32,452 bases of DNA, from NCBI RefSeq assembly GCF_004010195.1, contig NC_057757.1, positions 3,903,763 through 3,936,214 of the forward strand, written 5' to 3'. The first letter of the stretch is position 1; the number at the start of each line of letters is the position of its first letter. The DNA is from Chiloscyllium plagiosum (lineage: Eukaryota). Below, piece by piece: positions 3,040 to 32,043 of this stretch. The translations under genes and the position numbers were made by a program. The notes beneath the pieces were generated by a model. The model ran no database searches and had not been told where the DNA came from. It saw only the letters and a program-made list of their open reading frames with translations.

Positions 3040-3830
3040 GAATCCCTGTAACCCCCTCCAGCCCTTACACCCCCTCCCTATATCTGTACCCCCCTCCAGC
3101 CCCTACACCCCTCCCTATCTTTGGGACCCCCTCCAGCCCCTACACCCCTCCCTATCTCTGTAANNNNNNNNNNNNNNNNNNNNNNNNNNNNNNNNNNNNN
3201 NNNNNNNNNNNNNNNNNNNNNNNNNNNNNNNNNNNNNNNNNNNNNNNNNNNNNNNNNNNNNNNNNNNNNNNNNNNNNNNNNNNNNNNNNNNNNNNNNNNN
3301 NNNNNNNNNNNNNNNNNNNNNNNNNNNNNNNNNNNNNNNNNNNNNNNNNNNNNNNNNNNNNNNNNNNNNNNNNNNNNNNNNNNNNNNNNNNNNNNNNNNN
3401 NNNNNNNNNNNNNNNNNNNNNNNNNNNNNNNNNNNNNNNNNNNNNNNNNNNNNNNNNNNNNNNNNNNNNNNNNNNNNNNNNNNNNNNNNNNNNNNNNNNN
3501 NNNNNNNNNNNNNNNNNNNNNNNNNNCCCCTCCCTATCTCAGTATGCTCGTCCAGCTCCTACACCCCTCCCATTCTCTGTCACCTCCTCCAGACCTTACA
3601 CCTCCAACCATATCTCCGTAAATTCCTCCAGCCCTTACACCCCTCCTATCTCTAAATTCCTCCTTTCGCTATACCCTTCCTCTCCCTATCATTATCACCC
3701 CTGCAGCCCGTATATCCCTCCCTATCTCTGTAACCTCCATCAGTCCTCCTTGGTCTCTGCCTCCCTTTCAATCCCTACATCTCTCCCTATCCCTCTTACC
3801 CCTCCAGCCCCTATAATCCTCTTAGATCTC
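3040..3830. repeat. C-rich ~35-37-bp minisatellite spanning an assembly gap (N 3164-3526)
   Basis: Repeated CCCCTCCAGCCCCTACACCCCTCCCTATCTCTGTAA-like units on both sides of the gap, decaying towards 3830. Confidence 0.88.
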
Positions 3831-4054
3831 CATGGCAGAGGTTGTGGTGAGGGGGTGTACCTTTGGAAGGTCTCAGTCTGTGGTTATAGAACCCTCCCCC
3901 CCCCCAAACCTCTCCCTCTCCTGCAATCTCTCTTTCCTCATGTTCCCCCGTAAATCCCTCCCTCTGTCTGATCACTGGTTTAATTCTCCTAAAACCTCCT
4001 TTGGAACCCTGTCCTTTCACTGGGATGGATCTGGGGACTGCCTCGAGGAGCAGA

Positions 4055-4275
4055 TTTGACTGAGTTGAGGAGGAACGTCTTCCCCCAAAGGATTATGAAT
4101 CTGTGGAATTCCCTGCCCAGTGAAGCAGCTGAGGTTACCCCGTTGGGTGTTTTTGGATAGATTTTTGAACAGTTAAGGAGTTAAGGATTATGGTGCTGAA
4201 TCCATGAAAAGTTGAGCAATAACCTATTGAAAGGGGGAGCAGGTCGGAGGGGCCAGCTGGTTTAATTCTGTTCTT
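4055..4275 (+). mobile_element. Degenerate CR1-type LINE 3' fragment
   Basis: GAGGAGGAAC...AATCTGTGGAATTCCCTGCCCAG...GATAGATTTTTG matches the NFF.QRVV.LWNSLP...DRFL terminal region seen in other CR1 copies in this window. Confidence 0.65.
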
Positions 4276-4480
4276 GTAATCAAAGGGCTCCCCCCCAACC
4301 CTGTTGTAATTTCATCCACCCTCTTCCCTCGAGCAGATGGTATAAACATTTATAAACACATACAAACAGATTCAAGAACAGCTTCTTCCCCGTGCGACCA
4401 TGCTGCCCCTTTAACAAGGTTATTGTCACCCATGGTTTCTTTGAAGAGGGGTTGCAAAGGCAGAGCTTCCGATATGTCTG

Positions 4481-7400: not shown

Positions 7401-7508
7401 GGATGAGAATGGAATAGTGTAGGTTAGATGGGCTTCAGATTGGTTCCACAGGTTGGCACAACATCGAGGGCCGAAGGGCCTGTACTGCGCTGGAATTTCT
7501 ATGTTGTC
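4481..7508 (+). mobile_element. CR1/HER1-type LINE (ORF1 end, decayed ORF2 APE endonuclease + RT, 3' tail) inserted in the 5' LTR
   Basis: ORF fragments VFYRQP...VVMRDFNFPNIDW...ATLDLVLGN...DSDHN (APE), and KSAGADGIYP, GRSCLTNLIEF, DFSMAFDKISH, GVPQES (RT). Possible TSD TGTCTG. The 3' tail GGGCCGAAGGGCCTGT is shared with the HE1 SINEs. Confidence 0.95.
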
Positions 7509-8039
7509 TGTCTGGAAATGTCTTTTTGAAATGGCTTTGAAAGTTTTTATTTGGAAACACTTGTACAATGAAAGGGGAGTGGCCAGTTCTCCCGGTTCAG
7601 GGATTTTTTTTCTGTTTGGTTTTTTCGAGCAGTCTGTTTGAAGCTACTGGACAAAGAAAGCTGCTGGGGGAGAAGGTTCCCTGATCCAACAGAGGGTTCC
7701 TGACAGACCCTCCCTCTCCCTCTCGCTCTGCAATCTCTCTCCTGTAAGAACTCGTGTTTGAATTTACCTTTTTGCCAAAGGGTGTGTTATGGGATGTTGC
7801 AGAGAATTGGAATAGCTCTTTGTTAAGTTGCGTTTTTGTGTCGGTTGGGTTTTCACACAGTTATGTTATTCTAAATGGGTTTTCTCTTGTTCATGTGCAA
7901 ATGACTACCGAGTGGTTTGACCAGCTGTGTCAATCCTGGAATATCCACCTGACATCTGCTTAAAACAGCCAGAAAAACACAGGGTCTGGGATACCTGCTT
8001 AAAATACTTTGAGGGGGTCTTGCCTGGTCCATAACAGAT

Positions 8040-8057
8040 TGGGGGCTCGTCCAGGAT
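8040..8057 (+). promoter_or_regulatory. Primer-binding site complementary to tRNA-Pro
   Basis: TGGGGGCTCGTCCAGGAT begins 3 nt after the LTR end (CA at 8036). It is 17/18 identical to the classic tRNA-Pro PBS TGGGGGCTCGTCCGGGAT. Confidence 0.9.
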
Positions 8058-8178
8058 TTATTCTGTAGTTCTGATTTGGTATTAAGGTTGCTGTGCTCAA
8101 AGGTAGCGAGTGGAAGGTGTTAGTGTCTTTTGATCCAGGTGTTGAATTCGGATGGTTTAAACACTGCTTGGGGGAATA

Positions 8179-9645
8179 ATGGCTCTGTCAGTCACAAAGA
8201 GTATTCTGGGGGTGGGAGAAGTGACCTTGGGGGTTTTACAAAACAAGGCAAAGCAGCTGCAATTAGCAGACAGACTGAACTTGGGGTTATCTACATTCCT
8301 CAGAAAAAGGAGAGATAATTACAGCAATAGCTCAGCATTTAAATTTGCTGGAAATGTCATTTGAATCTTTGGAGATGCCGAAAATTCAATTGAAGATGAA
8401 GCAGCTTGAGTTAGAGGCAAAAGGAAAAGAGAACAAGAAATGTAACTGTTGAAATTACGATTCAAAGCAGAGGAAAGAGAAAAAGAATGAAAGGCCCTAG
8501 CAGAACAAAAAGAAATGGACAGAATCGTTTCAGCAGAACAAAAAGAGAGAGAGAGAGAGAGGGGGGGAAAGGAAAGGAAGAAAGAGAGGGAGTTTGAACT
8601 TAATAAATTGGCACTTTGACAGGAGAGTCAGCTTAAAAGGATGGAGATGAAGGCTGAAGGTAAACTCAGTGAAGAGTGAGGATGAGCAAACCCCTGGGAG
8701 CCAAAGGCCTGGTGGGGATCTGTTCCAATACATCCAAGCGTTGCCTCAATTTGATGAGAAGGATGTAGAAGTCTTTTTCATCTCAGGTGAGAAGGTGGCT
8801 AAACAAATGCAGTGGGCCGTGACTATGTGGATTTTCTTGATCCAAACAAAACTTTTAGATACAGCAAGTGAGGTATTCACATCCCTATCAGAGGCGGAGT
8901 GGGGGATGCGTATGAGGTGATGAAGAAAGCCATCTTAAGTGCATATGAACTTGTGCCAGATACTTACAGACAACTTACAGGCTCAGTGGTTAGCACTGCT
9001 GCCTCACAGTGCCAGGGACCCGGGTTCAATTCCCGCCTCGGGCAACTGTGTGGAGTTTGCACGTTCTTCCCGTGTCTGCGTGGGTTTCCTCCGGGTGCTC
9101 CGGTTTCCTCCCACAGTCCAAAGATGTGCAGGTTAGATGAATTGGCCATGCTAAATTGCCCATAGTGTTAGGTGTAGGGGTAAATGTAGGGGAATGGGTC
9201 TGGGTGGGTTGCTCTTTGGAGGGTCGGTGTGGACTTGTTGGGCCGAAGGGCCTGTTTCCACACTGTAAGTAATCTAAAAAAAAGTTTCAGGAATCTAAGG
9301 AGTGACCCTGGTCAAACCTACATTGAGTTTGAAAAGATTAAACAAAGTAATTTCAACAGATGGAGAAGGGCATTAAAAATAGAACAAAACTATGACACTC
9401 TTAGAGAGAGGATTATTTGGAGGAGTTTAAAAATTCACTTTCTGAGGGAGTGACAACCCCTGTGGAAGAGCAGAGAGTGAAGACAGCAAGATTAGCAGCT
9501 GAAATGGCTGATGGTTATGAGTTAGATCATAAATCAAAGTTTGGCTTCCAACATCAATTTCAATCCGTGAGCGATAGAAACTGGGGAAAAGAGAAATCCT
9601 CATGTGGAAAGGGAAAAGCAGATGTCAGTGAAGATCATCAGGATA
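8179..9645 (+). pseudogene. Degenerate gag with SCAN-like capsid C-terminal domain (LTR element 1)
   Basis: MALSV..., LPQFDEKDVEVFFI..EKVA, KKAILSAYELVPDTYRQ|SINE|FRNL...FNRW...LEEFKNSL...ARLAAEMADGY; frameshifts and stops. Confidence 0.85.
8974..9283 (+). mobile_element. HE1-type tRNA-derived V-SINE inside gag
   Basis: A/B-box head (GGCTCAGTGGTTAGC...GGTTCAATTCC), V-domain TGTGGAGTTTGCACGTTC...GGGTTTCCTCCGGGTGCTCCGGTTTCCTCCCAC, CR1-like tail ending AATCTA. Confidence 0.92.
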
Positions 9646-10594
9646 ACGCTGGAGCTGTTTAACTTCTCTTTCCCCTTCAAGGGTTTCTATTTTATCCTGT
9701 GGTAAGTTATCCTGATGGTCACATGTTTCCTGATTCAACAGAAGTTTCTGACTGACTCACCCCCTCTCTGCAATCCCTCTCCTGTAAGAACCCGTACTTG
9801 AATTTAGCATTTTGCCAAGGAAATTGGGACCGCTCTTTGTTGAGTTATATTTTCATGTTTGTTGGGTGTTCAAACAGTTACTTTATTCAAAACTTGGTTT
9901 CCTTTTGTTTGTGTATAAATAAATCCTGTTTCATTTCAAACCGAGTGGTTTGACCAGTTGTGTCGCTGCTGGAATATCCACCTGACCCCTGCTTAAAACA
10001 ACGAAAAAAGCTCGGGTCTGGGCTGCCTGCTTAAAATGTTTGGGGGTGGGGTCTGCATGGTCCCTAACACCCGGCATTATCAGACTTTTGAACAGACCTC
10101 CCAAATATTAATTCTGATCTCTCGCTCTCTGTGACTGTAACTCTGCATTCTGCACTCTGTTCTACTTTCCTGACACACTCCGTATGATACGATCTGCCTT
10201 TCGAGCACACAAAACAATACTTTTCACTATATCTCTGGACATGTGACAACAATAAATCAATCCACGAGCCCTGGACACTTCTAGAGACAGATACTGCTGT
10301 TTGGAACGGTGGCCCGATTCCACCATAAATTGCCAAGTCGGGATGTGAGTCTAAACTTGCTTCCTTGAGGGGTGTTATTTTTCTAGTTAATTGTTTTCTA
10401 GTCATTGTTTTGGAACTTGACGGTTTGCAAGTTCTCTTAATAAGCAGCCGAATGGAAAGGAACTCATGGCGATTTACCCACAAGACCAGGATAGAAAAAA
10501 GCTTGGAGTCACGGAGTGGCTGGTGAAGGGAAGGACTGAGTCCGAATCAGACGCCAAGTTGGTGACATATTGGAATGAGATTGAATTGACTCAC

Positions 10595-10637
10595 CGACAC
10601 AGAGAGACAGAAGGAGGAGGTGAAGAGCAGAGCCCAT
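10595..10637 (-). CDS. Signal-peptide (leader) exon of the PILR-like gene
   Basis: ATG at 10637 in strong Kozak context (gcgATGG). Encodes MGSALHLLLLSLCV+G with phase-1 donor G|gtgagt. Joins the V exon to give MGSALHLLLLSLCVGMIHG/DGFTV. Missed by the ORF track. Confidence 0.85.
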
Positions 10638-10699
10638 CGCCGTGCCTGCTCTCGCTCTGGTCGTCTGCTTTCAATGATTACAAGAGAAATGTAGTGGGG

Positions 10700-10790
10700 T
10701 TTTATAACACACCCAGTCACTCCACACAGTTAGTTCTGCTTTCATGTCTTCCTGTTTTTCTGTGCTCCGACCAACTCCAGGCAGGAAGTG
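10700..10790 (-). promoter_or_regulatory. Putative core promoter: TATA box plus two ETS/PU.1-type sites
   Basis: TATAAAA on minus (10706-10700), about 63 nt upstream of the ATG. ACAGGAAG on minus (10748-10755) and CAGGAAGTG on plus (10782-10790), all in non-repetitive DNA. Confidence 0.65.
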
Positions 10791-11666
10791 GTATCCTCAA
10801 ACCGACTGAGGAGAGACGGTGGGAGTGTTTTTCTCACTTATTTCTAGAATTCCGATCTGCAAAGCAGCGAGGGGAGGGGGATCCAGAGGAGGATCCTGGG
10901 GGTAAAGGGCTTGTTGTATCAAGAGCGGTTGAGGACACTGGGTCTGTATTCAATGGAGTTTAAAAGGATTGGGGGTGGGGGGAGAGGCTCTAATTGAAAC
11001 TTGCAGAATACCGAGAGGCCTGGATAGAGTGGGCGTAGAGAATTGAAATAAATTAGTTATTAACCTGATGTGGAGGAGCCAGTGGTGGACTGGGATGGAC
11101 AAAGTTACAAATCGCACAACACCAGGTTATAGTCCAATGGATTTATTTGGAAGCACTAGCTTTTGGAATGCTGCTCCTTATCTTTGGAACGTATGTTTGT
11201 GGGTGACCTTTCGTCTTGATAAAGCAGGAAAAATTTGCAATTCTCAGCACTTTTTATGATTTTGTTTGCCTTCATTGCTTGAACCATTGACGTGGAACGT
11301 CATGTTGGAGTTGGACAGGACATTGGTGAGGCCACTTTTGGAGTACCGTGTGTAACTCTGGTTTCCTTGCTGTAGGAAGGTGGTTATGAACCTGGAGAGG
11401 GTGCAGAAATTATTCACATGATAAAATCATGAGGGGCATGGATAAGGTAAACAGCAAAGGCCTTTTCCCCAGGATAGGGGAGTTCAAACCTCGGAGGGCA
11501 TAACGTTAAGGTGAGAGAGGATAGATTTAAAAGGAACTTGAAGTGACAAAGTTTTCACACAGCGAGCGGGTGGTTTGTGCAAGGAATGAACAGCCAGAGG
11601 AAGTGGTAGCTGTTGGTACAGTTGAAACCTTTAAAAAAGACATTTGGACAGGGACATGGATAGGAA

Positions 11667-11887
11667 CGAGCTGGAAATGTGTTGCTGGAAAAGCGCAGCA
11701 GGTCAGGCAGCATCCAGTGAACAGGGGAATCGACGTTTCGGGCATAAGCCCTTCTTCAGGAATGAAGAAGGGCTTATGCCCGAAACGTCGATTCTCCTGT
11801 TCCCTGGATGCTGCCTGACCTGCTGCGCTTTTCCAGCAACACATTTCCAGCTCTGATCTCCAGCATCTGCAGACCTCACTTTCTCCT
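11667..11887. mobile_element. 221-bp Penelope-derived fold-back element with hammerhead core
   Basis: 12-bp TSD CATGGATAGGAA (11655-11666 / 11888-11899). 91-bp inverted arms 11668-11758 and 11763-11853 with 2 mismatches and a GGAA loop. Confidence 0.9.
11728..11763 (-). ncRNA. Minimal type I hammerhead ribozyme motif, core intact
   Basis: Minus strand reads AUUC-CUGAAGA-A-GGGC-UUAU-GCCC-GAAA-CG-UC^GAUU, fitting CUGANGA / stem II / GAAA / UH. Confidence 0.7.
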
Positions 11888-12230
11888 CATGGATAGGAAA
11901 GGTTTGGAGGGATGTGGGCCAAATGCAGGCAAGTGGGATGAGTTAGTTTGGGAAATGTGGTCAGCATGGACGAGTTGGACTGAAGGGTCTGTTTCCGTGC
12001 TATATGAGTCTCTGAGAAGATATTTCCGCCAGTGGGAGAGACTGGGACCCAAGGGCACAGCCTCAGGAGTGAAGGGATGGACTGAGATGAGGAGGAATTT
12101 CTTCAGCCAGAGGGTGGGGACTCTGTGGAACTGATGGCCACAGAGGGCTGTGGGGGCCAAGTCATTGAGTGTCTTTAAGATGGAGAGAGATGGGGTCCTG
12201 ATTGGTAAGGGGGGATGGAGGGTCACGGGG

Positions 12231-12730
12231 NNNNNNNNNNNNNNNNNNNNNNNNNNNNNNNNNNNNNNNNNNNNNNNNNNNNNNNNNNNNNNNNNNNNNN
12301 NNNNNNNNNNNNNNNNNNNNNNNNNNNNNNNNNNNNNNNNNNNNNNNNNNNNNNNNNNNNNNNNNNNNNNNNNNNNNNNNNNNNNNNNNNNNNNNNNNNN
12401 NNNNNNNNNNNNNNNNNNNNNNNNNNNNNNNNNNNNNNNNNNNNNNNNNNNNNNNNNNNNNNNNNNNNNNNNNNNNNNNNNNNNNNNNNNNNNNNNNNNN
12501 NNNNNNNNNNNNNNNNNNNNNNNNNNNNNNNNNNNNNNNNNNNNNNNNNNNNNNNNNNNNNNNNNNNNNNNNNNNNNNNNNNNNNNNNNNNNNNNNNNNN
12601 NNNNNNNNNNNNNNNNNNNNNNNNNNNNNNNNNNNNNNNNNNNNNNNNNNNNNNNNNNNNNNNNNNNNNNNNNNNNNNNNNNNNNNNNNNNNNNNNNNNN
12701 NNNNNNNNNNNNNNNNNNNNNNNNNNNNNN
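12231..12730. other. Scaffold gap of exactly 500 N (probably an unsized join)
   Basis: Round-number N run that separates the minus-strand leader+V exons from the plus-strand TM/cytoplasmic exons. Confidence 0.95.
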
Positions 12731-13832
12731 AGTAAATTTGCAGATGACACTAAGGTCGGTAGAGTTGTGGGGAGTGATGAAAGATGTTTTAGGTTACAGA
12801 GGGACATAGATAAGCTGCAGAGCTGGGCTGAGAGGTGGCAAATGGAGTTTAATGCGGAAAAGTGTGAGGTGATTCACTTTGGAAGAAACAACAGGAATGC
12901 AGAGTACTCGGCTAATGGTAAACTTCTTGGTAGTGGAGATCAGCAGAGAGATCTTGGTATCCATATACTAGATCCTTGAAAGTTGCCACCCAGGTTGATA
13001 GGGTTATTAAGAATGGAAATGTGTTGCTGGAAAATCACTTTGGAAGAAACAACAGGAATGCAGAGTACTCGGCTAATGGTAAGCTTCTTGGTAGTGGAGA
13101 TCAGCAGAGAGATCTTGGTATCCATATACATAGATCCTTGAAAGTTGCCACCCAGGTTGATAGGGTTATTAAGAATGGAAATGTGTTGCTGGAAAAGCGC
13201 AGCAGGTCAGGTTATTAAGAAGGCATACAGTATGTTAGCTCTTATTGGTAAAAGGATTGAGTTTCAGAACCATGAGGTTATGCTGCAGCTGTACAAAACT
13301 GTGGTGCGGCCACACTTGGAGCTTTGCATACAGTTCTGGTCACCGCATTATAGGAAGGATGTGGAAGCTTTGGAAAGGGTTCAGAGGAGGTTTACCAGGA
13401 TGTTGTTCAGTATAGGGGGAAGGTCTGAGGGACTTGAGGTTGTTTTCATTACAGAGAAGAAGGTTGAGAGGTGACTTAATTGAGACATATGCAATAATCA
13501 GAGGGTTAGATAGGGTGGACAGAGAGAGTCTTTTTCCTCAGATGGTGATGGCCAGCATAAGGGGGCATAGCTTTAAATTGAGGGGTGATAGATATAGGAC
13601 AGATGTCAGAGGTAGGTTCTTTATTCAGAGAGTAGTGAGGGTATGGAATGCCCTGCCTGCAACAGTAGTAGACTCGCCATCTTTAAGGGCATTTAAATGG
13701 TCATTGGATAGACATATGGATGAGAATGGAATAGTGTAGGTTAGATGGGCTTCAGATTGGTTCCACAGGTTGGCGCAACATCGAGGGCTGAAAGGCCTGT
13801 TCTGTGCTGTGATGTTCTATATTTGATGTTCT
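12731..13832 (+). mobile_element. CR1/HER1-type LINE 3' portion with ~160-bp tandem duplication
   Basis: SKFADDTKVG...WAERWQMEFNAEKCEV...VRPHLE.CIQFWSPHY...FFIQRVVRVWNALP; very similar to 6620-7500. Confidence 0.95.
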
Positions 13833-13885
13833 CTGTAACCCCTTGAACCTTCCCTCCAACACCTGCCCTGTGTCCTGGCCCTCAG

Positions 13886-14425
13886 TGTCACCTCAATGGT
13901 TAAGGCTGCAACATGGGAACCATGCAATGGCTCCATCGAACCAAGAAACTATTCAGGATGATAGGGTTATTAACGTGTCACAAAACCTCAAAGGAAGTCT
14001 GGTATCCCGCTGCGTGTGCCATATTACTGCAGAGGGTGTTTACAAGAATGGCCCCTGGAGTGTGGAGAATGTGGTGGCCGAGTGGTATTAGATTAGATTC
14101 CCTACAGTGTGGAAACAGTTCCTTCGGCCCAACAAGTCCACACCGACCCTCCGAAGAGTTACCCACCCAGACCCATTTCCCCCTGACTAATGCATCTAAC
14201 ACTACAGGCAATTTAGCATGGCCAATTCACCCTGACCTGCACATCTTTGGACTGTGGGAGGAAACCGGAGCACCTGGAGGAAACCCACGCAGACACGGGG
14301 AGAACGTGCAAACTCCACACAGACAGTCATCCAAGGCTGGAATTGAACGTGGATCGCTAGTGCTGTGAGGCAGTAGTGCTAACCACTGAGCCACTGTGCC
14401 AGGCTGTTTGTCCAGAGAGACCCAG
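13886..14425 (+). pseudogene. Decayed Ig V-set exon interrupted by an HE1 SINE
   Basis: Reads C(13886)HLNG*GCNMGTMQW, then DDRVINVSQNLKGSL, then YYC(14022-14030). Removing a 2-nt AG duplication and the SINE gives YYCRVFTRMAPGVWRMWWPSGTRLFVQRDP with phase-1 donor CAG|gtaatg at 14425/14426. Confidence 0.72.
14088..14400 (-). mobile_element. HE1-type V-SINE
   Basis: Reverse complement of the 8974-9283 SINE; tail TTAGATTAGATT at 14088, head GGCACAGTGGCTCAGTGG at 14400. Confidence 0.93.
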
Positions 14426-15282
14426 GTAATGTTCCAGGGAACCTGGCTTTGCAATCTTCCCAGAGCAGAGAGTGGAACTTGAATTCAATTTTTTTTTTAA
14501 ACAACCTGGAAATAATAGTCCCCTGTTGGCGATGAATCGAATTGTCAGAAAACTAATGTCCATCCCGGAAGGAAACTGCCATCCTTACCCAGTCTGGCCT
14601 ACACGTGACTCCAGACCCACAGTCATGTGGTTGGCTCTCAACAGCCCCCCAGGCAATTAGGGAGGGGCCTAGCCAGTGCCACCTTCACCTGGGAATCGTG
14701 ATCGGGAAAAGGGTGATTGGGAAATGGTCGAATTGTTACTCCCTTCCCAACCTCCTGTCCTTTCACGGGGAATCTGAAATAAAAATGGCAAGGCAATGGA
14801 AAATCTCAGCAGGTCTTTGGAGAGAGAGAGAGAGAGAGAGAGAGTTTAACATTTCCGTTCCGTCTATTTTAGAGCATAAATTCCGAAGAGTTACGTCAGA
14901 CTGGAAACGTTAACTCTTTCTTTCACCACAAACGGAGAAATATCAGTTAGGGTCAGAGTGAAGGTGAGGGTTAGGAGCACAAGTTAGGCCATTCGGTCCC
15001 TCAGGCCTATTCTGCTGTTCAATGGGATCATGGCTGATCATCCAACACTGTCCCTGTTTGTATTTGAACCCTCCATGCACTGACTGGTTGGGGCCTACAG
15101 GTGACTCCCATCCCACATCAACATGGCCGACTTCTGAATGACCCTCTGGAGTGTCTGCTGGCAGTTTGAGATGATGCCTTCCCAGGAATAAGTCTCAGCC
15201 TTTTCCAGAGGGTCTGGTATACCTGACAATGAACAGGTGGACAGGGAGGTCAGTAATTTTTCATTAAATACACATATTTGTG

Positions 15283-15872
15283 ATTTCTGAGAAGATTTGT
15301 AGCTCAGGGTGAGGTTCGGGTTGTAAGTTTGCTCGCTGAGCTGGAAGGTTTGTTCTCAGATGGTTCGTCACCATGCTAGGTAACATCATCAGTGAGGAGA
15401 CAGTGAAGTCTGCAAATGCTGGAGATCAGAGTTGAGAGTGTGTTGCTGGAAAAGCACAGCAGGTCAGGCAGCATCCAAGGAGCAGGAGGATCGATGTTTC
15501 GGGCCGGAGCCCTTCATTGGACATCATCAGTGAGCCTCCTGCGAAGCACTGGTGTTATGTTCAACTTTATGTGTCTTGGTCTGGTAAATTGGATGATATC
15601 ATTTCCTTATTCTCAGAGGTTGATAAATGGGGTCCAAATCGATGTGTTTATTGATGGAGTTCCGGTTTGAATGCCAGGCCTTTAGGAATTCCCGTGCATG
15701 TCTCTGTTAGCCTGTCCCAGGCTGGATGTGTTGTCCCAGTCAAAATGGTGTCCTCCTTCATCCGTATGTCAGGATACGAGTGACAGTGGGTCATGCCTTT
15801 TGGTGACTAGTTGATGTTCGTGTATCCTGGTGGCTAGTTTGCTGCCTGTCTGTCCGATGTAGTGTTTGCTGC
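15283..15872 (-). mobile_element. Penelope-like element fragment (GIY-YIG endonuclease + 3' terminal repeat with hammerhead remnant)
   Basis: KHYIGQTGSKLATRIHEHQLVTKRHDPLSLVS*H...HHFDWDN...INKHIDLDPIY. Downstream CUCA-CUGAUGA-U-GUUAC...GUGAC-GAACCAUC-UGAG at 15355-15396. Confidence 0.85.
15397..15520 (-). mobile_element. Single-arm copy of the short Penelope-derived element
   Basis: Same sequence family as 11667-11887; 14-bp TSD ACATCATCAGTGAG (15383-15396 / 15521-15534). Confidence 0.85.
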
Positions 15873-16712
15873 CATCCAGCAATATGTATTTATATTGACC
15901 CTGGGGACATGGATGTTGCTGACTGGTCCAGCATTTATTGCTCATCCCTAATTGCCCCTTGAGAAGGTGGTGGTGAGCTGCCTTCTTGAACCACTTGTGA
16001 CATTGCTGCCCCTTTAACAAGGTTCTTTTGTCTTTAGATTTTTTTCAAGGGGGTCGTAAAGGCAGACGTGCCGAAATGCCTGGAGTGGGCTACTTTAAAC
16101 AAGGGCATGGGAGTGGCCAGTACTTCCAGTTCAGATTGTTTTCTCGTCTGTTTTTTATTAGGAGGCAGTCAGAAACATCTGGTAGCAGAGACACTGCTAC
16201 TGTGAAAAAGGGTCCCATGTTTCAACAAATGTTTCTTGCCTGACTCTTCTCATTGCAATCTCTCCTGACTTTAAGAACCTGTGTTTGAATTTGCTGAGGG
16301 GTGTGTCGATCGTAAAACATAGAACGGTACAGGCCCTTCGGCCCTCGTTGTTATGCCTGCCTTTTATCCTACTCTAAGATCAGACTAACCGACATACCCT
16401 TCATTGTACTATCTTCCATGTGCCAATCCAAGAATCACTTAAATGTCCCTAATGTCTCTGACTCTACTGGTTCTGCCGGCAGTGCCTTCCACGCACCCAC
16501 CACGCTCCGAGTAAAGAACCTATCTCTGATATTTCCCCTAAACCTTCCTCTAATCACCTTAAAACTGTGCCCCCTCATTCCCGCCTTGGGAAAAAGTGTC
16601 TGGCTGTCCACTCTATCTATGCCTCTCAATATCTTGTACACCTCTATCAAGTCACCTCTCATCCTTCTTCGCTCCACTGAAAAAGATCTAGCTCCCTCAA
16701 CCGTTTTTGTAA

Positions 16713-17030
16713 GGCACGCCATGGTGGCACAGTGGTTAGCACTGCTGCCTCGCAGCGCCAGAGACCCGGGTTCATTTCCCATCTCAGGTGACTCTCTGTG
16801 TGGAGTTTGCACATGCTCCCCGTGTCTGCGTGGGTTTCCTCCGGGTTCTCCGGTTTCCTCCCACAATCCAAAAATGTTCAGCTTAGGTGAATTGGCCATG
16901 CTAAATTGCCCGTAGTGTTAGGTGAAGGGGTAAATGTAGGGGAATGGGTCTGGGTGGATTGTGCTTCAGCGGTTCGGTATGGACTTGTTGAGCTGAAGGG
17001 CCTGTTTCCACACTGTGAGTAATCTAATCT
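16713..17030 (+). mobile_element. HE1-type V-SINE nested in CR1
   Basis: tRNA-like head, V-domain and AATCTAATCT tail. Confidence 0.92.
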
Positions 17031-17440
17031 GAACATGCCGTCCGGTCCAGGCGACATCCTGGTAAATCTCCTCTGCACCCTCTCTAAAGCTTCCACATCT
17101 CTCATATAATGAGGCAACCAGAACTGAACACAATATTCTAAGTGTGGTCTAACCACGGCTTCATAGAGCTGCAGCGTAATCTTGTGGCTCTTAAACTCAA
17201 TCCCCTGCTATTGAAACTCAACACAATATACACCTTCTTAACAATCCGATCAACTAGGGTGGCAACTTTGAGGGATCTATGGACATGGACATTCGTCCAG
17301 ACTGCCAAGTGTTCTGCCTTTAACCCTGTATTCTGCATTCAAATTCAACCTTCCAAGATGAATGACTTCACACTTTTCCAGGTTGAGCTCCATCTGCCAC
17401 TTCTCAGCCCAGCTCTGCATCCTGTCAATGCCCGACTGAG

Positions 17441-17784
17441 TTAGCATCCCCAAATGTGGAAACAGGCCCTTTGGCCCAACAAATCCACATTGATCAAAGA
17501 GTAACCCACCCACATCCATTCCACTGCCCTTTATTTGCCCAATGCACCTAACCTACACATCCCTGAACAATATGGGCAGTTTAGCATGGCCCACTCACCT
17601 AACCTGCACATCCCTTAGCACAAAGGCAATTTAGCATGGACAATTCACCTAACCTGCACATCTTTGGATTGTGGGAGGAAACCCACGCAGACAGGGGAAA
17701 ATGTGCACACATCACATAGACAGTCGCCCAAGATCCCTGGCGCTGTGAGGCAGCAGTGCTAACCACTGAGCCACCGTGCCACCC
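17441..17784 (-). mobile_element. HE1-type V-SINE nested in CR1, with internal duplication
   Basis: Head GGGTGGCACGGTGGCTCAGTGG on minus; the TTTAGCATGG...CACCTAACCTGCACATC segment occurs twice. Confidence 0.88.
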
Positions 17785-18488
17785 ATCGCAACCTACAACA
17801 GCTCTCCACACTATCTACAACTCCACCAACCTTCGTGTCATTAGCAAACTTACTAACCCACCTTTCCACTTCCCCATCCAAGTCATTTATAAAAATCACA
17901 AAGAGCAGAGATCTCAGAACTGACCCCTGTGGAACACCTCTGTTCACCGAGCTCCAGGCTGAATACTTTCCATCTACCACCACCCTCTATCTTCTATGGG
18001 CCAGCCAATTCTGTATCCAGACAGACAGGTTCCCTATATTCCAAGCCTCCTTATTTTCTGAATGAGTATTCTTGGGATGTTGTGGGAATTGGAAAGGCTC
18101 CTTCGTTAAGTTGCGATTTCAAGTCAGTTGGGTTTTCAAATAGTGCAGTTATTGTAAATTCTCTTTTGTTTGTGTATTGCTTCAATAAATTCTGTTTTGC
18201 TTCAAGCTGGGTAGTATGACCAGCTGCATCACACCTGGACTATCCACGGCACATCTACCTTTAAAATATGACAAAGTTCAGGTCTGTTCCTAAAGTGGGC
18301 TCCGTTCCTAAAGTGTTTTGAGGAGGTCTGGCCTGGTCCATAACAGATTGCAAACTCTTGGCAGGATTTATTCGATAGTTCCAATTTGGGATTAGGGTGG
18401 TTGGACTCAAAGGCAGCGAGTGGTAGGTGTTATTGTCTTTTGTTCCGGATGTTGAATCCGGTTGGTTTAAACCCTGCTTGGGGGAGGA

Positions 18489-21400
18489 ATGGCTCTTTCG
18501 GTCGCTAAGAGTTTTTTGGGGGTGGAAGAGGTGACTTTGGGACCTTTACAAAAGGTGAACAAGGAAAAGCTTCTGGAATTGGTAGGCAAGTTGGAGTTGC
18601 CTTCATCCATGAGGAAAGGAGAGAACATTACAGCAACGGCTCAGCATTTCAAATTTGCTGGAAATGCCATCAGCATCTTTGGAAATGGCTAAAGTCCAGT
18701 TGAACATGAAGCAGCTTGAGTCACTGGCATAAGACAAAGGAAGAGAAATAGAAATCTCTGAAAGTTTTCTCTGAAAGTTGCCACCCAGGTAAATAGTGCG
18801 GTGAGGAAGGCATATGGCGTACTGGCTTTTATTGGTAGAGGAATTGAGTTCCGGAGCCCTGAGGTCATGATGCAGTTGTATAAGACCCTGGTACGGCCGC
18901 ATCTGGAATATTGTGTGCAGTTTTGGTCGCCATACTATAGAAAGGATGTGGAGGCACTGCCAGTAGCAGTGGTGGACTCTCCCTCTTTATGGGCATTTAA
19001 GCGGGCATTGGATAGGTATATGGAGGATAGTGGGTTAGTATAGGTTAGATGGGCTTGGATCGGTGCAACATCGAGGGCCAAAGGGCCTGTACTGCGCTGT
19101 ATTCTTCTATGTTCTATGTTCTAAATGAAATATGATTGGAAATAGAATAGTTTGACTTAAGAGAAAACGAACGCATCACCCGAACAGAACCAAAAGATAA
19201 ATAGTGAGAGGAAAGAGAGAAAGTGAGAGAAGAAAGGGAGAAAGAGAGGGAAATTGAACTTTGTGAATTGGCACTTAGCCAGGAAAATCAGCTTGAAAGG
19301 AAAAGGCAAGCTCAGGGAGGGAGAGAGTGAGGATGAGCAAACCCCTGGGAGCCGAAGGCCTGGTGGGGATCTGTTTCAATACATCCAAGCATTGCCTCAA
19401 TTTGATGAGAAGGATGTTAGAAGCCTTTTTCATCTCATCTGAGAAGGTGGCTAAACAAATGCAGTGGCCAGTGACCATGTGGGTTTTGTTGATCCAAACA
19501 AAGCTGGTAGGTAGAGCTACTGAGGTATTCACATCCCTATCAGAGGAGGTACCTGGGGATATGAGGAGGTGAAGAAAACCATCTTAAGTGCATATGAACT
19601 TGTGCCAGAAACTGACAGACAATGTTTTAGAAATCTAAGGACGGACCCTGGTCAAACCTATATTGAGTTTGAAATGATCAAAGTCATTTTGAGAAGTGGA
19701 GAAGGGCATTAAAAATGGAGGGAATCTATGATGCTCTTAGAGAGACAATTACCTTGGAAGATTCAAAAATTCACTTCCTGAGGTAGTGAGAGCCCCTGTG
19801 GAAGAGCAGAGAGTAAAAATGGTAAGATTAGCAGCTGAAATGGTTATGAGTTGGTTCATAAATCAAATTTTGGCTTCCAACATCAATTTGAATCCGTGAG
19901 GGATAGAAACTGGGGCAAAGAGAAATCCTCATGTGGAAAGGGAAAGGTAGCTCTCAGTGAAGATCATCAGGGTAACCTACCACAGGGTCAAAAGGAAACC
20001 CATGAAGGGGAAAGAGAAGTTAAACAGCTCTGGTGTTTTCACTGCCATGTGAAATCACAGTGTTAGTGAGTCTGGAAAAGCCAGATGTAGGAAACAGGAG
20101 AAGCCAGTGAATTCAGTTGGAGTGTTAACAGAAAGGACAGTGGGGGCTAGAAAGCTGCATCAGAATGTACAACCTGGTCAGAGGTTGGGTAAGGAGGAAG
20201 TGCTACATTGTCTTAAACCATTTATGTGCAAAGGTCAGGTTCACTCGCATAGGCCAGGAGCAGCAGGCAAAGAGGTTACACTATTAAGGGATATGGGATC
20301 ATGTCAATCTTTGATGTTGAGAGCTGAGGAGATATGTAACTCCAAAGGATTATTGCCAGAAAAAGTGCTAATACGTGGAACTCATGGTGAGACAAGAAGT
20401 GCTCAATTGTGTAGAGTGAGGTTACAGTGAAGAGTGGAGTCCGTCATGGTGGCAGGATTGGAAAAATTCTCAAATCCTGGAATACAATTTGTCCTTGCTA
20501 GCGATATAGCTGGGTCACATAGGAGTGCTGCCTACTGTGGTTGAAAAGCCAGTGGAAAATCAGGCAACTGAGATAGTACAGGAAAGATCTCCTGGGATTT
20601 TTTTCTGACTGTGTGGTAACGAGGTCACAAAGTCACCAGTCGGAACAAGAGGAGAAATCAAAGAATACAGATAAGAAAGTTGAAGTCGAATTATCAGAGA
20701 CCCTGGTTGATCAGATGGATGAGATGAAACAGGAACAGGTGGAGGACAACATGGATATCTTTAGCTCAGAGAAAGATGAAAAACTGAAGTGATTGTATCA
20801 AAAAGCATACTTGGACGAAGACTGTAGATGTATCCCAGTGTGCAACTATCATAAAAATGATGTCTTACTGAGGGAAATGGAAACCATCACATATTCAGGC
20901 AGATGGGAAATGGGCAGAAATTCATCAAGTCGTATTGCCAGTGGGTTATAGAAAGGAGGTATTGTGGGTCATGCATAAATTACCAGTAGGAGGTCATTTC
21001 GGGGTAGGAAAAACTCAAGCTAAAATATAAAAACATTTTTACTGGCCTGGACAGCTCAAGGATGTAGTTGTATTTTGCCCGACATGTCATGCACGTCAGG
21101 TAATTGGAAAAATGCAGGCATCTTTAATACCTATTCTTGCACTTGAGGAATGAGTTACAAGCATCCTACTTGATTTCACTGGACCCCTACTTAAAGCAAA
21201 AAGTTGGAATCAATATTTGTTAACAATAATGGATATGTCCACTCGAGTTTCAGAGGCCAATCCAATACATACTAAGAGTTACTCAAAGTTTTCACTTGAT
21301 ATCAATCCGATCAAAAGTCAAACTTTACATCAAAACTATTCAAGGAATTTATGGACAGCTTAGCAACAAAACAATTCAAATCCATTGCGAACATCCGGAA

Positions 21401-23350
21401 TCGTAGGGAGCATCAGACATTAAAGACCATGTTGAGGGCTTCTAGTCAAGACTATCCAGATGATGAGGATAGAGGAATTCCATTTGTGCTTTTTGCCATC
21501 AGAGATGCACCAAATGAATCGACCAAATGCAGAACATTTGAATTAGTTTTTTTTTGGCATGAGTGGACCACTAAAAATAATTAAGGAGAAATTGGTGAGT
21601 CAGAATTCAGCCACCATATGTTTGGTCTCTGTGTCAAATTTTCAGGAACAACTAAATAAAGTGAGGGAACTGGCTCAACAGCATTTAAAAATATCACAGC
21701 ATATGCCGAAACAGGAAGCAGACACGAAATTAAAAACTCGCAATTTTCCGGTTGGAGATAAAGTGCCAGTGTTACTACCAGTGACAGGTGCACATTTAAA
21801 AGCATAGCTTAGTAGACCTTATCAAGTCAAAAGGAGATTGAGTGAGGTGGACTATTTGATCAGGACTCGACAGAAATAAATCTCACAGAGTGTGTCATGA
21901 ATATGCTCAACAGATATTTTGACAGGGATGGAAAGCAAAAGGAGACTGTGCTACTGGTTACAACACAGAGGGAAGCACCAAGTTCGGAGGACTCTGAATT
22001 GGACATTCCTCAAACTAAATTAGACAATGAGGAAATTATCAAAAATTTGGAGAAATTATTGACTTACCTTCCAGAGGAAAACTTGCAAAGACTCAAAAGA
22101 GTTATTGTTATTGCATAGAGATATGTGGAAATAAACTAGGAAGTACTAACCCAATTATACACGATGTTGATATATGAAATTCTGTTTTGATTAAGCAACA
22201 TCTTTGAGACTTAACTCTCTAAATTTGGCAGAGGTTCAAAGAGATTGAACTCATGCCCCAAGACAACATAATCAAAGTGAGTTACAGTGTCTGGAGCTCA
22301 CCCATAATAATGGTGCCAAAACTGGATGGTACCCAATGGTGATGTGTTGGCTATCACAAAGTCAATGCAGTTACAAAGTCTGATTCATATCTGATTTCAC
22401 ATTTGGAAGACTGTATTGAAAAGGTGGGACAAGCAACTTCTATTTCTAAGTTGGGCTTACTCAGAGGATACTGGCAGGTACCTTTATTCGAAAGAGTGAA
22501 AGACAATTTTGCCTTTCGTTACGCCGAATGGACTGTACCAATTTAAAGTCATGTCATTTAGTGTGAAAAATGTGCTAGCCACATTTCAAATAACCAATCT
22601 GGTCATTTCTGGATTACCCAATTGTGTGGTATATATTGATGACCTGGTGATTTTTTTGTCACACACGGAAGGAAGATTTGCAACATTTATCAGAATTATT
22701 CGACTGGCTTCGCGGGGGCAGGCTTGGTGATAAACCTGGCCATGAGTGAACTTGCCAAAGCCCAAGTCACCTTCTGAGGCCATATTATCGAACATCAACA
22801 AATGGCCCCACAGAACATAAAACCAAAGGTTATTGGGGGGTTTTCCATACCATCAATCAAGAGAGCAGTACTATGATTCCTGGGATTGACTAGATTTTAT
22901 TGGAAACTTGTACCAAATTTTTGTAGGTGGCTGCTCCACACACTGAATTCTTAATAAAAGTAGGAAGTTTCAGTGGATACAGCTTGAGAGCTGTGTTAAT
23001 CACCACCCCAGTGTTAGCTACACTTAATTACACAAAGCCATTCAAGGTGGCTATTGATGTAAGTGATGTGGGTGTCGGTACTGTGCTCTTACAGGAAGAT
23101 GACGAGAAGAAATATCGACATTTGAAAAGGCGACTTTGAGCTTGGTGTTGGCGTTACAACATTTATGTTGCCAGCAATTTGCCTGAGACAATCATGTTTA
23201 CAGAGGATAACCCACTGAAGCTTTTGGAGAAATTTGAGGACAAAAATTCCAGACTGTTTAGATGGAATTTATTATTGCAACCATTCAATTTGAAAATTGT
23301 ACACGTGGCAAGGTGAAAAAACATGATTGCCAACACATTGTCAAGATTTG
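18489..23350 (+). pseudogene. Decayed gag-pol of element 2 in order gag/SCAN - Zn knuckle - PR - IN - RT - RNase H
   Basis: CFHC[del]HVKSQC ~20030; LLRDMGS ~20281; GGHFG..KT...FYWP...C.TC ~20990-21090; SDQKSNFTS ~21305; GDKVPV..RPYQV ~21750-21830; SSPIIMVPK ~22295; GYWQVP; YIDD 22632-22643; AIDVSDVGVGTVLLQ ~23050; RLFRWNLLLQPF, IANTLSR ~23250-23345. Confidence 0.92.
18768..19122 (+). mobile_element. Short, internally deleted CR1 3' end inserted in gag
   Basis: KAYGVLAFIGRGIEF...VRPHLEYCVQFWSP fused to LPVAVVDSPSL; tail (TTCTATG)n. Confidence 0.9.
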
Positions 23351-24658
23351 GATGAGAAATGGAGGTGTTCGGTGGCAGGAGTAAACAGACTGAGGCAGAA
23401 TGTTTGCGTGGTTATAGTTAATGTACATGTATTGTAGTGTACTCACAGGGTAAGACTAAGGGGTTTCAAAATGAAGCCATAATTTGTATATTGATGGTTC
23501 ATTTTTTAAGGGGGAGGCATGACGATGGTTGCCCCTTTAACAAGGATATTTTGTCCTTGGACTTTTTCAAGATGGGGCCATAAAGGCAGAGATACCGATG
23601 TGTCTGGATTGCTACTTTAAAGAATGACAGGGGAGTGGCCAGTTGTCCCAGTTAAGGTTTTTATTTCTAGTTTATTGTTTTTTTTTAGCTGGCAGTCGGA
23701 AACAGCTGGTAACAGAGAAGCAGTTACTGTGAAAAAGGCTTCCATGCTTCAACAGATGTTTCTTACCTGACTCTTCTCTCTGCAATCCCTCCCACCTGTA
23801 AGAACCTGTGCTTGAATTCACCATTTGCCAAGGGGTGTGTTCTTGGGATTTTGTGGGGACTGGAACAATTCCTTCATTAAGTAACGATTTTGAGTTTGTT
23901 GGCGTTTCCAAATAGTCAAGTTATGCTAAATTCTTTTTTTTGTGTTTCAACCATAGTGTGTAAATAAATTCTGTTTTGCTTAAAGCCGAGTGCTTTGACC
24001 AGCTGCATCTCTCCTGGAATATCCACTTTATAGCTGCCTTTAAAATAAGTACATGTTAGGGAATGGGCTACCTTCTTAAAGTGTTTGGAGGGGGTCTGGC
24101 CTGATCCATAACACGCCGCAGTCCACCCTGCTGTCAGCTGACCCACAATGCTATTAAGTCTGTGTGATGTAGGGACACCCACACAATGCCATTCGGGAAG
24201 GGGTTCCAGGAATTTGACCTAGTCAGGATGGTGTGGGTCTTGGAGAGGAATTTGCATGGGGTTGGTGTTCCCATGTATCTGCTGCCCTTGATCTTCTAGA
24301 TGAAGTGGTCGCGGGTTTGGAAGGTGTTAATTAAGGATCTTTGGTGAATTTCTGCAGTGCATCTTGTAGGTGGCACACACTGCTGCTCCTGAGTGTTGGT
24401 GGTGGAGGGAGTAGACATTTGTGGACGTGGTGCCAATCAAACGGGCTGCTTTGCCCTGGATGGTGTCAAGTGTCTTGAGTGTTATTGGAGCTGCACCCAT
24501 CCAGGCAAATGGGGAGTATTCCCTCACACTTTTGACTTGTGCCTTGTAGATGGCAGATAGGCTTTGGAGAGTCAGGAGGTGAGTTACTTGTTGCAGTATT
24601 CCCAGCTTCTGACCTGCTCATGTAGCCGCAGTGTTTATGTGGTGAATCCAGTTGAGTT

Positions 24659-25295
24659 TGTGACACTGCTATGCCTTCAAGAAGTGTTATTTTGTCCTGG
24701 TTTCTTTTAAGAGAGAGATTGAACAAGAGGCACTGAGCAGTCTGTGGTAATATTAGCAGCTGGTGAGACCGTTGAGCTTCTTTATAAGTTGGAACAATAG
24801 AAGCAGCCTGGATGGATGTTGGCACCTCTCACAGTACCAAGATTTCGAGCTTTTTTGTTAACTTTTACATTCAGCAGAACCTGCTGGGGTCTTGAAGAAA
24901 TTAAAGCTATTTTTCACCCTCTCTTGATTACAGCTAGAAACTGGGCTTTCTCTTCCTACAGCAGGCATTGCTTGTGGGAATATCTGATTTCTGAATTTTC
25001 CTTTGTGCCAAGGGGTGTGTTTATGGGATGTGACTATATTGGAACAGTTCATTAGTAATAGGTACCATAGCTATTATTCTGTTAAACTTTACAATAAAGT
25101 CAAGTTTTCTAAATTCATCTTTCTTCTGTTATAGTTTAACCATAGTGTTTGCATAAATTGGGTTTTGGTTAACGTTGAGTCATTTGACCAGTCGCATTGT
25201 ATTTGGAACACTGCACTTTACATTAATTTTCAAAATAAGAAAAAGTTACCTTCTTAACATGTTTTGAACAGCTCTGGTCTGGTTGATCCTTACCA
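24659..25295 (+). mobile_element. Solo LTR of a related Gypsy subfamily
   Basis: TGTGACAC...CCTTACCA termini. Shares TTTGTCCT, GCCAAGGGGTGTGTTTATGGGATG, TTTGACCAG and TACCTTCTTAA blocks with the other LTRs, and the host LINE resumes afterwards. TSD is not clean. Confidence 0.8.
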
Positions 25296-25733
25296 GCTTT
25301 CCAGTCAACGATAATGTTGATTCAGTGATGGTAACACCATAGAATGCTAAGGGGCAGTGGTTAGATTGTCTCCTATTGGAGATGGTCATTGCCTGGCATT
25401 TGTGTGTAACACGAATGTTACTTGCCACTTGTCAGACCAAGCCTGGATATTGTCCTGATCTTGTTAATACTAAAACAGATTATTTTTTATTCATAAAAGA
25501 AGCCTGGTGTGTGATACTTTTAGGGTGGACAGCAGAGAAAGTATTAGCCATTTTGGTAATTCAGTCTGAAAGCAACAAATGCTGGAGATCACAGCAGTCA
25601 GGCAGCGTCCATGGAGAGAGAGCAAGCTAACATTTCGAGTCTAGTTGATTCTTCATCAGAGAGGGTAATTCACAGTCATATAAACTGCATAATTGCCGGA
25701 GTGGTGGGTTTTAATCTTCCAGTTCAGTTTCTA

Positions 25734-25954
25734 GTCAAAACATGTGGTGGTGAGAAAGCACAGCAGGTCAGGCAGCATCCGAGGAGCAAGAGAATCGACG
25801 TTTCGGGCATTAGCCCCTTTATCACATTCCTGATGAAGGGCTAATGCCTGAAACGTCGAATCTCCTGCTCCTCAGATGCTGCCTGACCCCCTGTGCTTTC
25901 CCTGCAATGCCTTTTTTAACTCTGATCTCCAGCGTCTGCAGCCCTCACTTTCTC
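25734..25954. mobile_element. 221-bp Penelope-derived fold-back element, second and more diverged copy
   Basis: 15-bp TSD CCAGTTCAGTTTCTA (25719-25733 / 25955-25969); inverted arms centred at ~25827. Confidence 0.88.
25826..25861 (+). ncRNA. Minimal type I hammerhead ribozyme motif, core intact
   Basis: AUUC-CUGAUGA-A-GGGC-UAAU-GCCU-GAAA-CG-UC^GAAU. Stem I AUUC/GAAU is fully paired and ACGU is palindromic in place of stem III. Predicted cut after 25857. Confidence 0.72.
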
Positions 25955-26158
25955 CCAGTTCAGTTTCTACTCAGTGGTAACTCCTCCCCCCCACCCCACC
26001 CCACCGCCCAGGATGTTGATCGTGTGGGAGGGGATTCAGCCTTGGTAACACCACTGAATGTCAAACGGCAACAGTTCAGTTGTTGGAGACAGCCATTGCC
26101 TGGCATTCGTATGGCGCCGATCTTACTTTCATTAAAGTGGTCCTCTCTCTGTTTTCAG

Positions 26159-26365
26159 CGCGGCGATCAAATTCTTCCACATCCACGGTCAAAGCCATCA
26201 TGGTTTCAACATGGCAACCAATGTCTTCTACAACCATGGTAACAACCATGGGAAAATGTCAGAAGTTGCCCTGGATTGTAGCGATTGCGTGTGTAGTGAT
26301 AGTGCTCATTGCTATCATGGTGATAGCAGCTACCGTATACTGCAAGAAAAAACGTCAGCAGCGAG
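26159..26365 (+). CDS. Ser/Thr-rich stalk + transmembrane exon of an inhibitory-type Ig receptor
   Basis: 207 nt, phase 1/1. Acceptor tcctctctctgttttcag|CG, donor CGAG|gtaagg. Encodes ARRSNSSTSTVKAIMVSTWQPMSSTTMVTTMGKCQK-LPWIVAIACVVIVLIAIMVIAATVYC-KKKRQQR (uncharged TM, basic stop-transfer). Confidence 0.9.
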
Positions 26366-30256: not shown

Positions 30257-30300
30257 ATTCCGGCGCACCGTGCCAACCTGAGACAGCGCCCGCTGGTGAG
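30257..30300 (+). CDS. Small cytoplasmic exon of the inhibitory receptor
   Basis: 44 nt. Acceptor ctgctttgtatctttcag|, donor GAG|gtaaga. Phase 1 to 0 exactly bridges the TM exon and the ITIM exon; encodes DSGAPCQPETAPAGE. Confidence 0.7.
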
Positions 30301-31896: not shown

Positions 31897-32043
31897 CTCG
31901 CCCAGCCGGAAGGCCTGGGCTATGCCTCTCTGCAGGTCGGAGGAGGAGGAAGAAGAGAAGGCCCGATGACCAGGAGCAGGACCCTGCGAGAGGATGGAGA
32001 CGTTGTGAATGCGGCCGTGTTGTTTCAGACAGACTCTCGCTAG
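31897..32043 (+). CDS. Terminal ITIM-bearing cytoplasmic exon (PILRA-like tail)
   Basis: First AG after a ~115-nt AG-free pyrimidine-rich tract; phase 0. Encodes LAQPEGLGYASLQVGGGGRREGPMTRSRTLREDGDVVNAAVLFQTDSR*. LGYASL (31915-31932) fits the ITIM consensus. Confidence 0.78.
   Translation, partial: LAQPEGLGYASLQVGGGGRREGPMTRSRTLREDGDVVNAAVLFQTDSR

Follow-up and report, generated by a model that had tools for sequence, protein, structure and literature searches.

A PILR-like receptor cluster in the bamboo shark Chiloscyllium plagiosum, probably of three genes with two of them likely head-to-head

The DNA under study is a stretch of 32,452 nucleotides (nt) of the bamboo shark Chiloscyllium plagiosum (contig NC_057757.1; G000:C48:3903763-3936214), hereafter called the window, which was analysed together with its flanks (200 kb around the window); positions outside it are counted from window base 1, negative numbers lying to the left. 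It carries exons of immunoglobulin (Ig) receptors with a single variable (V) domain, a stalk-transmembrane (stalk-TM) exon and cytoplasmic tail exons. The window probably contains parts of two genes of a three-gene shark PILR-like cluster, likely placed head-to-head, namely gene A (minus strand), which is predicted to be activating, and gene C (plus strand), of the inhibitory type and apparently degenerating; the third, gene B (minus strand), is situated to the left.

Gene A starts with a leader coding exon (10637-10595, minus; MGSALHLLLLSLCV-G, the donor GT being next), ahead of which a TATA-like element was found (TTATAAAA; 10707-10700, minus), and continues with a V exon (2872-2504, minus; 369 nt, phase 1-1, ending ...TVR G/GT). 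Its intron 1 contains a gap of 363 N (3164-3526), the second one in the window, and its intron 2 a minisatellite (3-2239) that leads into a gap of 1618 N immediately to the left of window base 1. The encoded V domain (Pfam V-set, E 1.4e-12) possesses both Ig cysteines, the FCR arginine and the WQS motif. A scaffolding gap of exactly 500 N (12231-12730) separates these parts from the plus-strand half, which consists of a long interspersed nuclear element (LINE) fragment (12731-13830, plus; presumably CR1-like), intron 2 of gene C (13837-26158, plus), a stalk-TM exon (26159-26365, plus) that begins CGCGGC (CGCGGCGATC...) and encodes a Ser/Thr-rich stalk (RRSNSS...) and an uncharged TM, a tail exon (30257-30300, plus; DSGAPCQPETAPAGE) and a last coding exon (31897-32043, plus). 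The minus promoter, leader and V, the 500-N gap, the plus TM and tail and the minisatellite at the edge had all been described in an earlier note on this DNA, which did not mention the 363-N gap, and were confirmed in the sequence. Likewise, the plus strand yielded no leader or V, either within the window or over the 112 kb that extend rightwards from its start.

Two explanations of this layout had been put forward in the earlier note, one of which was a single gene split by a flipped contig, such that inversion of 1-12230 would let the leader and V splice to the plus TM. This is suggested by the in-frame phase-1 join obtained upon inversion, by the exact size of the 500-N gap and by the start of the plus half near the point that follows V in the corresponding intron of gene B. 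The in-frame join is real but uninformative, because phase 1 is common to the leader-V, V-TM and TM-tail junctions and the TM exon of gene B likewise starts with CG. Evidence on the junctions came from assembled contigs of one study with three samples, none of the V-holding runs being recorded as RNA; contig cover in runs X12 and X13 was confined to the V exon, not the flanking introns, except for a repeat at the edge of the stretch. The leader-to-V splice of gene A was present in an X13 contig. Among the ends listed, two X12 contigs pass the end of V: the V end of the 408-nt contig equals that of the window exactly, and the 969-nt contig departs from it at five positions. The loose-end consensus of the two (agreement 0.70) was explained at 30/30 positions by the gene B TM together with a third exon, as opposed to 28/30 or 25/30 by pairs containing the plus TM of the window. 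The TM part of the 969-nt contig differs from the plus TM at 15 positions, as many as gene B does there, and 9/9 listed letters equalled those of gene B. Because the 969-nt contig with the variant V carries the gene B TM, the contig with the exact window V is assigned, by elimination, to the third exon; X13 also showed this third exon after a V end. The plus TM itself was covered by four records in four runs, namely two spliced contigs of the gene B type and two unspliced X10 contigs identical to the window, and no junction from V to the plus TM occurred among them. The RNA check proposed in the earlier note hence turned against its single-gene model, V joining a third exon instead. Raw single-cell run X14 (about 2% read) yielded four reads, none of them in the exon, and run X2 had nothing on the TM, such lack of cover being no evidence of silence.

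A further finding concerns the orientation of the window V. The last exon of gene A (DSSDGNLCGEAK followed by a stop) was retrieved on the minus strand at -3084 (G000:C48 ~3900678), between the window V and the leader of gene B, with its acceptor present and an AATAAA signal 760 bases downstream. As the exon follows V on that strand, the window V is correctly oriented. In addition, piece 1-12230 is linked to gene B through odd-sized gaps, without 500-N joins, and a separate leader for the plus TM is present on a scaffold bridging the 500-N gap (see below). Considering the RNA junctions, the last exon of gene A and this bridge, the flipped-contig explanation was rejected and is hardly credible; the other explanation, two divergently transcribed receptors, is supported.

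The third exon reads ALRPETTTDH, which corresponds to the stalk of P0024, a protein of a congener (stalk ARRPETTTDH, TM ..LILIIKVGF.., tail DSSDGNLCGETK), and of P0021 (stalk AWRPETTTDR, TM ..LILIIKAGF.., tail DSSDGN). It is predicted from these sequences to lead into a lysine-bearing activating TM, and the tail of gene A is predicted to be short and devoid of tyrosine. The separate TM with a charged Lys or Arg that the earlier note had considered was thus read in two related sharks, but its exon is unassembled in this genome. Indeed, the activating stalk-TM exon gave no matches in this gapped assembly by pattern (at most one mismatch) or by protein, none by tblastn in 232 kb and none in scaffold C97477; as a control for the protein search, the inhibitory TM query of the same species recovered both copies. 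In the bamboo shark, the activating form is therewith represented by the first 30 bases of the third exon and by the last exon. As assembled, gene A would run as leader, V, minisatellite, gap and last exon, followed by gene B, all on the minus strand. Two tandem plus-strand copies of the activating last exon were also encountered at 41205 and 43128 (40077-44699; L015/L016), with no AATAAA nearby and preceded by no leader, V or TM; one of them agrees at 99.5-100% with the copy at -3084 over a length of about 1.5 kb.

Gene B is colinear on the minus strand to the left of gene A, with a leader at -10712, a V exon from -13546 (the remainder of which falls in a 2694-N gap), an uncharged TM (-27818 to -28024) and tail exons at about -32390, -35180 and -38056, its last exon presumably lying within a 799-N gap. 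Splicing of gene B was evident from the 969-nt X12 contig, in which a variant V is followed by the gene B TM and then by its first tail exon. From sequence comparison, gene B is predicted to encode a V domain, an uncharged TM and four tail exons with two immunoreceptor tyrosine-based inhibitory motifs (ITIMs). A search for a third V gave only two close copies. The public gene model P0001, labelled Chiloscyllium plagiosum, whose leader is identical to that of gene A and which is 100% identical to it over V, joins the window leader and V to the TM and tail of gene B, and is probably a chimera of the gene A V and the gene B TM. The protein searches returned no product of the activating gene or of gene C from this genome. 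Were P0001 correct, the window leader and V would splice mainly to the gene B TM, the left leader and V being a spare duplicate. Such a model does exist, two residues (L in FIL and H in TH) are common to the window V and the inhibitory protein of the congener, and joints between a V end and a V start show that splicing can pass from one V exon to another. However, the single contig that connects a V to the gene B TM has a V end differing at five places from the window V, the V exon of gene B falls for the most part within a gap, so that a gene model would be driven towards the window V, and V domains group by species, so that single residues cannot assign partners. Correctness of P0001 is accordingly considered improbable. 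A pairing of V and TM exons by single shared residues (window V with left TM, left V with plus TM) was also tried and rejected, as the RNA contradicts the first pair and V groups by species.

Other transcript forms were also seen. A V end joined to a V start (2871 to 2503) occurred in X10 at a depth of 44, with both sides of the window-V type, and an X13 joint combined a window-type end with a gene-B-type start; the 369-nt exon being phase-symmetric, these joints may reflect a read-through of gene A into gene B with two V exons, or else circular RNA. Furthermore, a loose end in X10 has the V end spliced directly to the first tail exon of gene B, the TM being skipped, for which a soluble form is predicted; protein P0005 of the zebra shark has the same TM-skipping structure.

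Concerning gene C, the plus half from 13837 onwards is an inverted paralogue of the 3' half of gene B, its intron 2 being 83-99% identical by block to intron 2 of gene B and its stalk-TM exon sharing 186 of 207 bases with that of gene B. The missing 5' part was located by a leader search, which returned a third leader copy on the unplaced scaffold C97477 of exactly 21,000 bases. Region 14385-17581 of this scaffold corresponds to the promoter, leader and intron 1 of gene B (91.6% identity, plus), with the ATG of the gene C leader at 15869 (plus), and a 1036-N gap in the scaffold may hold the V exon. Positions 12426-12893 of C97477 overlap with 11763-12230 of the window (plus), ending at the edge of the 500-N gap, from where the scaffold extends into it; 467 of 468 bases are identical, the part outside short interspersed nuclear elements (SINEs) matches at 343/343, and the next best match to that part in the 232 kb searched was 80.7%. 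At the other end, when another LINE copy in the window is used as a ruler, the last base of C97477 falls at 6616 and window base 12731 at 6617, so that the first base of the LINE fragment continues the last base of the scaffold. Of 52 gap-side contig ends examined, 12731 is the only one to start there, another missing the spot by about 7 bases at 70% identity. Lengths that are multiples of 125 are found for C97477 and for the three pieces situated between 500-N gaps (17000, 92375 and 41625 bases), in 4/4 cases versus one of 25 ordinary contigs, as though they had been excised from longer scaffolds. Cuts at bin edges combined with 500-N joins are a mark of contact-map scaffolding. In the simplest reading, C97477 is the severed front of the plus piece, and the gap is likely filled by its right 8 kb (12894-21000). 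With the scaffold in place, the two ATGs would lie head-to-head at 4569 bases from each other, and the cluster is likely ordered, from left to right, as B (minus), A (minus), a 4.6-kb divergent spacer and C (plus).

The position of the plus piece bears on another explanation, namely that there are three genes in a true tandem array and that the plus piece (the right part of C97477 together with 12731-54355) is mis-oriented or misplaced. Every other PILR part lies on the minus strand, the plus piece is bounded by 500-N joins and holds the two copies of the gene A last exon, one of them 99.5-100% identical over about 1.5 kb, and the left part of C97477 conflicts with the window. Against this, the overlap of 467/468 bases spans a junction of one repeat inside another, with no other match nearby exceeding 81%, and the same old repeat is found mirrored upstream of the two leaders, as would be expected after an inverted duplication. 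A tandem array is therefore deemed unlikely, though less so than a correct P0001, and the head-to-head arrangement of genes A and C is preferred.

Gene C bears several signs of decay. Its leader carries Leu5Pro in the leader core, it lacks a counterpart of the first two tail exons of gene B (about 5.7 kb missing), and in its last coding exon the first ITIM-like motif (LGYASL) is intact, but the second reads VVNAAV for VVYAAV in relatives, so that the tyrosine is lost. The nearest protein to its stalk-TM exon is P0004 of the congener, an orthologue that is also devoid of ITIMs. In the RNA contigs, the stalk-TM exon was unspliced and present in one of four runs, and no spliced gene C transcript occurred in the contigs of the four runs, which show presence, not absence. 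Gene C is likely a decaying paralogue or a decoy. Within the three-gene arrangement, it might instead be intact, with V hidden in the gap and the TM spliced in frame to what is left of the tail, and be expressed as a decoy or as a weak inhibitory receptor with one ITIM: the leader, TM and two tail exons have open frames and intact splice sites, P0004 has a leader, V, TM and short tail, and all lost exons are phase-symmetric. Speaking against an intact gene are the lack of a spliced contig in the four runs, a weak argument, and the combination of Leu5Pro, the loss of two tail exons and one ITIM tyrosine, and a V that was not found. An intact gene C is rather doubtful, though clearly less so than the alternatives to the cluster arrangement. 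A region at 27805 was considered as an additional tail exon and rejected, as it matches both copies but no protein of a relative maps there.

Remains of a retroelement, presumably of the long terminal repeat (LTR) type and described here without further classification, occupy about 16000-24100 in intron 2 of gene C and are common to the intron of gene B, with a related fragment at 7570-10080 in intron 1 of gene A; because the element is present in the introns of both genes B and C, it is older than their duplication. Block by block, genes B and C are between 74% and 99.5% identical, which suggests patchy conversion. On another contig of chromosome scale, an isolated copy of the promoter and leader (71%) was found at G000:C5:99055460-99055821 (L058); it is devoid of an ATG, and the 30 kb examined there gave no match to V or TM.

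Several observations weigh against the three-gene, head-to-head arrangement or parts of it. Firstly, the junctions come from contigs of a single study, of unrecorded library type and probably from other individuals than the one assembled; the link of V to the third exon was reached by elimination, over 30 letters of the latter, and the V contig ends were read among those listed, two further loose ends and 89 pieces lying beyond the listing. Secondly, searches of the assembly did not recover the activating TM exon, its lysine being read in relatives alone. Thirdly, the V exon of gene C is unassembled and the 1036-N gap looks too small for it. Lastly, C97477:1-7538, mostly an array with an 8-base period, mismatches the window where contiguity demands a match; therefore, either one of its joins is in error or the overlap of 468 bases arose by recent duplication, and near-identical duplicates do occur in the cluster (about 1.5 kb at 99.5-100%).

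The types assigned to genes A, B and C recur among 24 shark proteins. A charged TM (Arg or Lys) without any ITIM-like motif was found in 12 of these, from seven species; in another 11 the TM is uncharged, an ITIM-like motif being present in seven of the 11, and the remaining protein has no TM. The inhibitory form, with ITIMs and an uncharged TM, was seen in relatives (P0002, P0003 and P0006), and the congener holds the same three types as the bamboo shark (P0003, P0004 and P0024). Phylogenetic trees were made with 18 of the 24 proteins and the window parts, excluding isoforms, the TM-less form and one fused model. In the V tree, activating and inhibitory V domains pair within species, and the activating or inhibitory label needs six changes, no lower than in shuffles (385 of 500 as low). 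The stalk-TM tree separates the types cleanly, with one change and 100/99 support, under a long-branch warning. These trees would fit conversion of V between old signalling lineages: V is alike within species, with the signalling parts in separate lineages, as in other paired receptors. In two activating-type proteins of lamniform sharks (P0016 and P0017), which form their own clade, FCL replaces FCR, a possible loss of sialic-acid binding. Two further Ig exons were noted in the flanks, namely a B7-family-like V exon with CD276 and VTCN1 as best matches (L017:7805-8326, minus; ~60.3-60.8 kb) and a single-exon VJ-type Ig domain weakly resembling T-cell receptor alpha V and CTLA-4 (L021:1-429, minus; ~92.5-92.9 kb); we assume that the latter could belong to an NKp30- or PVRIG-like gene.

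Functionally, genes A and B would bind similar, probably sialylated, ligands by means of near-identical V domains that would be kept alike by gene conversion. Gene B would inhibit through ITIM-mediated phosphatase recruitment, gene A would activate via an adaptor with an immunoreceptor tyrosine-based activation motif (ITAM) paired to its TM lysine, and gene C would be a non-signalling remnant or decoy. A charge in the outer TM part is more typical of FcR-gamma-coupled than of DAP12-coupled receptors, and its location would favour FcR-gamma or CD3-zeta over DAP12 as the adaptor of gene A. An inhibitory and activating pair of this kind is what the reviews PMC3533184 and PMC13358205 portray for PILR, and PMC4536121 sets out the rule by which adaptors pair with receptors according to TM charge.

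What had appeared to be an assembly error may in this way be resolved into a three-gene cluster, and a probably chimeric public gene model, which hides the activating receptor of a model shark, is flagged. In the literature consulted, PILR is known from mammals. A wider proposal, advanced tentatively and with somewhat less than even confidence, is that the PILR pair is shark-wide and goes back to the jawed-vertebrate ancestor, with an old Arg/Lys-TM lineage and an old ITIM lineage swapping V in every shark species, the ancestral Ig disulfide being kept, and with bamboo sharks adding a head-to-head decoy, a two-V read-through and TM-less soluble forms. If true, the presence in seven shark species of the pair, with V domains homogenised by conversion, would mean that the logic of a sialic-acid checkpoint dates to early jawed vertebrates or arose twice. 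Constructs for the testing of ligands and adaptors in sharks are now defined.

As to known systems, the family itself is already known, its shark members carrying automated names. PILR-named proteins of eight shark species in the databases belong to the same family, but their alpha and beta labels, as given by the source, do not track the TM type, P0002 with two ITIMs being called beta and P0007 with a TM arginine alpha. The open-access literature searched yielded no publication on PILR of sharks, subscription journals being outside this coverage. Among other V-type receptors, pIgR, of the pIgR/CD300 type, tops the PDB list obtained with a single sequence, by summing five weak domains, the best of which scores 30.5 bits versus 65 for PILR; in the profile and fold searches, it ranks below PILR. 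Indeed, a profile of 16 shark proteins placed five PILR chains first (E 1.6e-27 to 1.1e-24), above pIgR and Siglec-15, and for the predicted V model (predicted local distance difference test score of 86.6) the six best fold matches were all PILR, followed by sialoadhesin.

The Siglecs (sialoadhesin, Siglec-15, MAG and the paired Siglec-5/14) are the next fold matches (template modelling scores of 0.80-0.84) and have the F-strand arginine in common with the shark V. They display a similar paired logic of ITIM versus adaptor, as described in PMC13358205, which also mentions a critical arginine common to PILR and Siglecs. Identity between Siglecs and the shark V is 22-25%, and Siglec-15 reached E 3e-13 in the profile search versus 1.6e-27 for PILR. 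The FCR arginine of the window V is taken by us to be the critical one of PILR and Siglecs. Moreover, C2-set domains follow V in Siglecs, whereas the shark V splices directly to the stalk-TM exon, with no further Ig exon in the genes.

The closest likeness is with PILR, in which a single V-set domain is likewise placed between the leader and the stalk-TM, with 33% identity and template modelling scores of 0.82-0.85. The motifs WRR..FHG, YFCR and WQS..GT are common to both, YFCRL and WQSVSGT of the window V aligning with YFCRV and WQSIEGT of human PILR. PILR binds sialylated O-glycopeptides such as CD99 and, in its activating form, associates with DAP12. The mammalian PILR locus neighbours MEPCE and NYAP1. 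With regard to synteny, one of two Bin3 (MEPCE-like) matches is on the same contig, 2.4 Mb away, and none of six NYAP_N matches is on this contig. According to PMC3533184 and PMC13358205, PILR comprises one ITIM form and one form with a positively charged TM residue; the sharks similarly have an ITIM form and a charged-TM form, predicted in the bamboo shark to be encoded by neighbouring genes. Differences from PILR are the first Ig cysteine, retained in the shark V and replaced by F in the human PILR chains, the charged residue near the outer TM end (Arg in five shark species, Lys in two), and, in the bamboo shark, the extra third gene, which is degenerate in its tail and likely placed head-to-head with the activating one.

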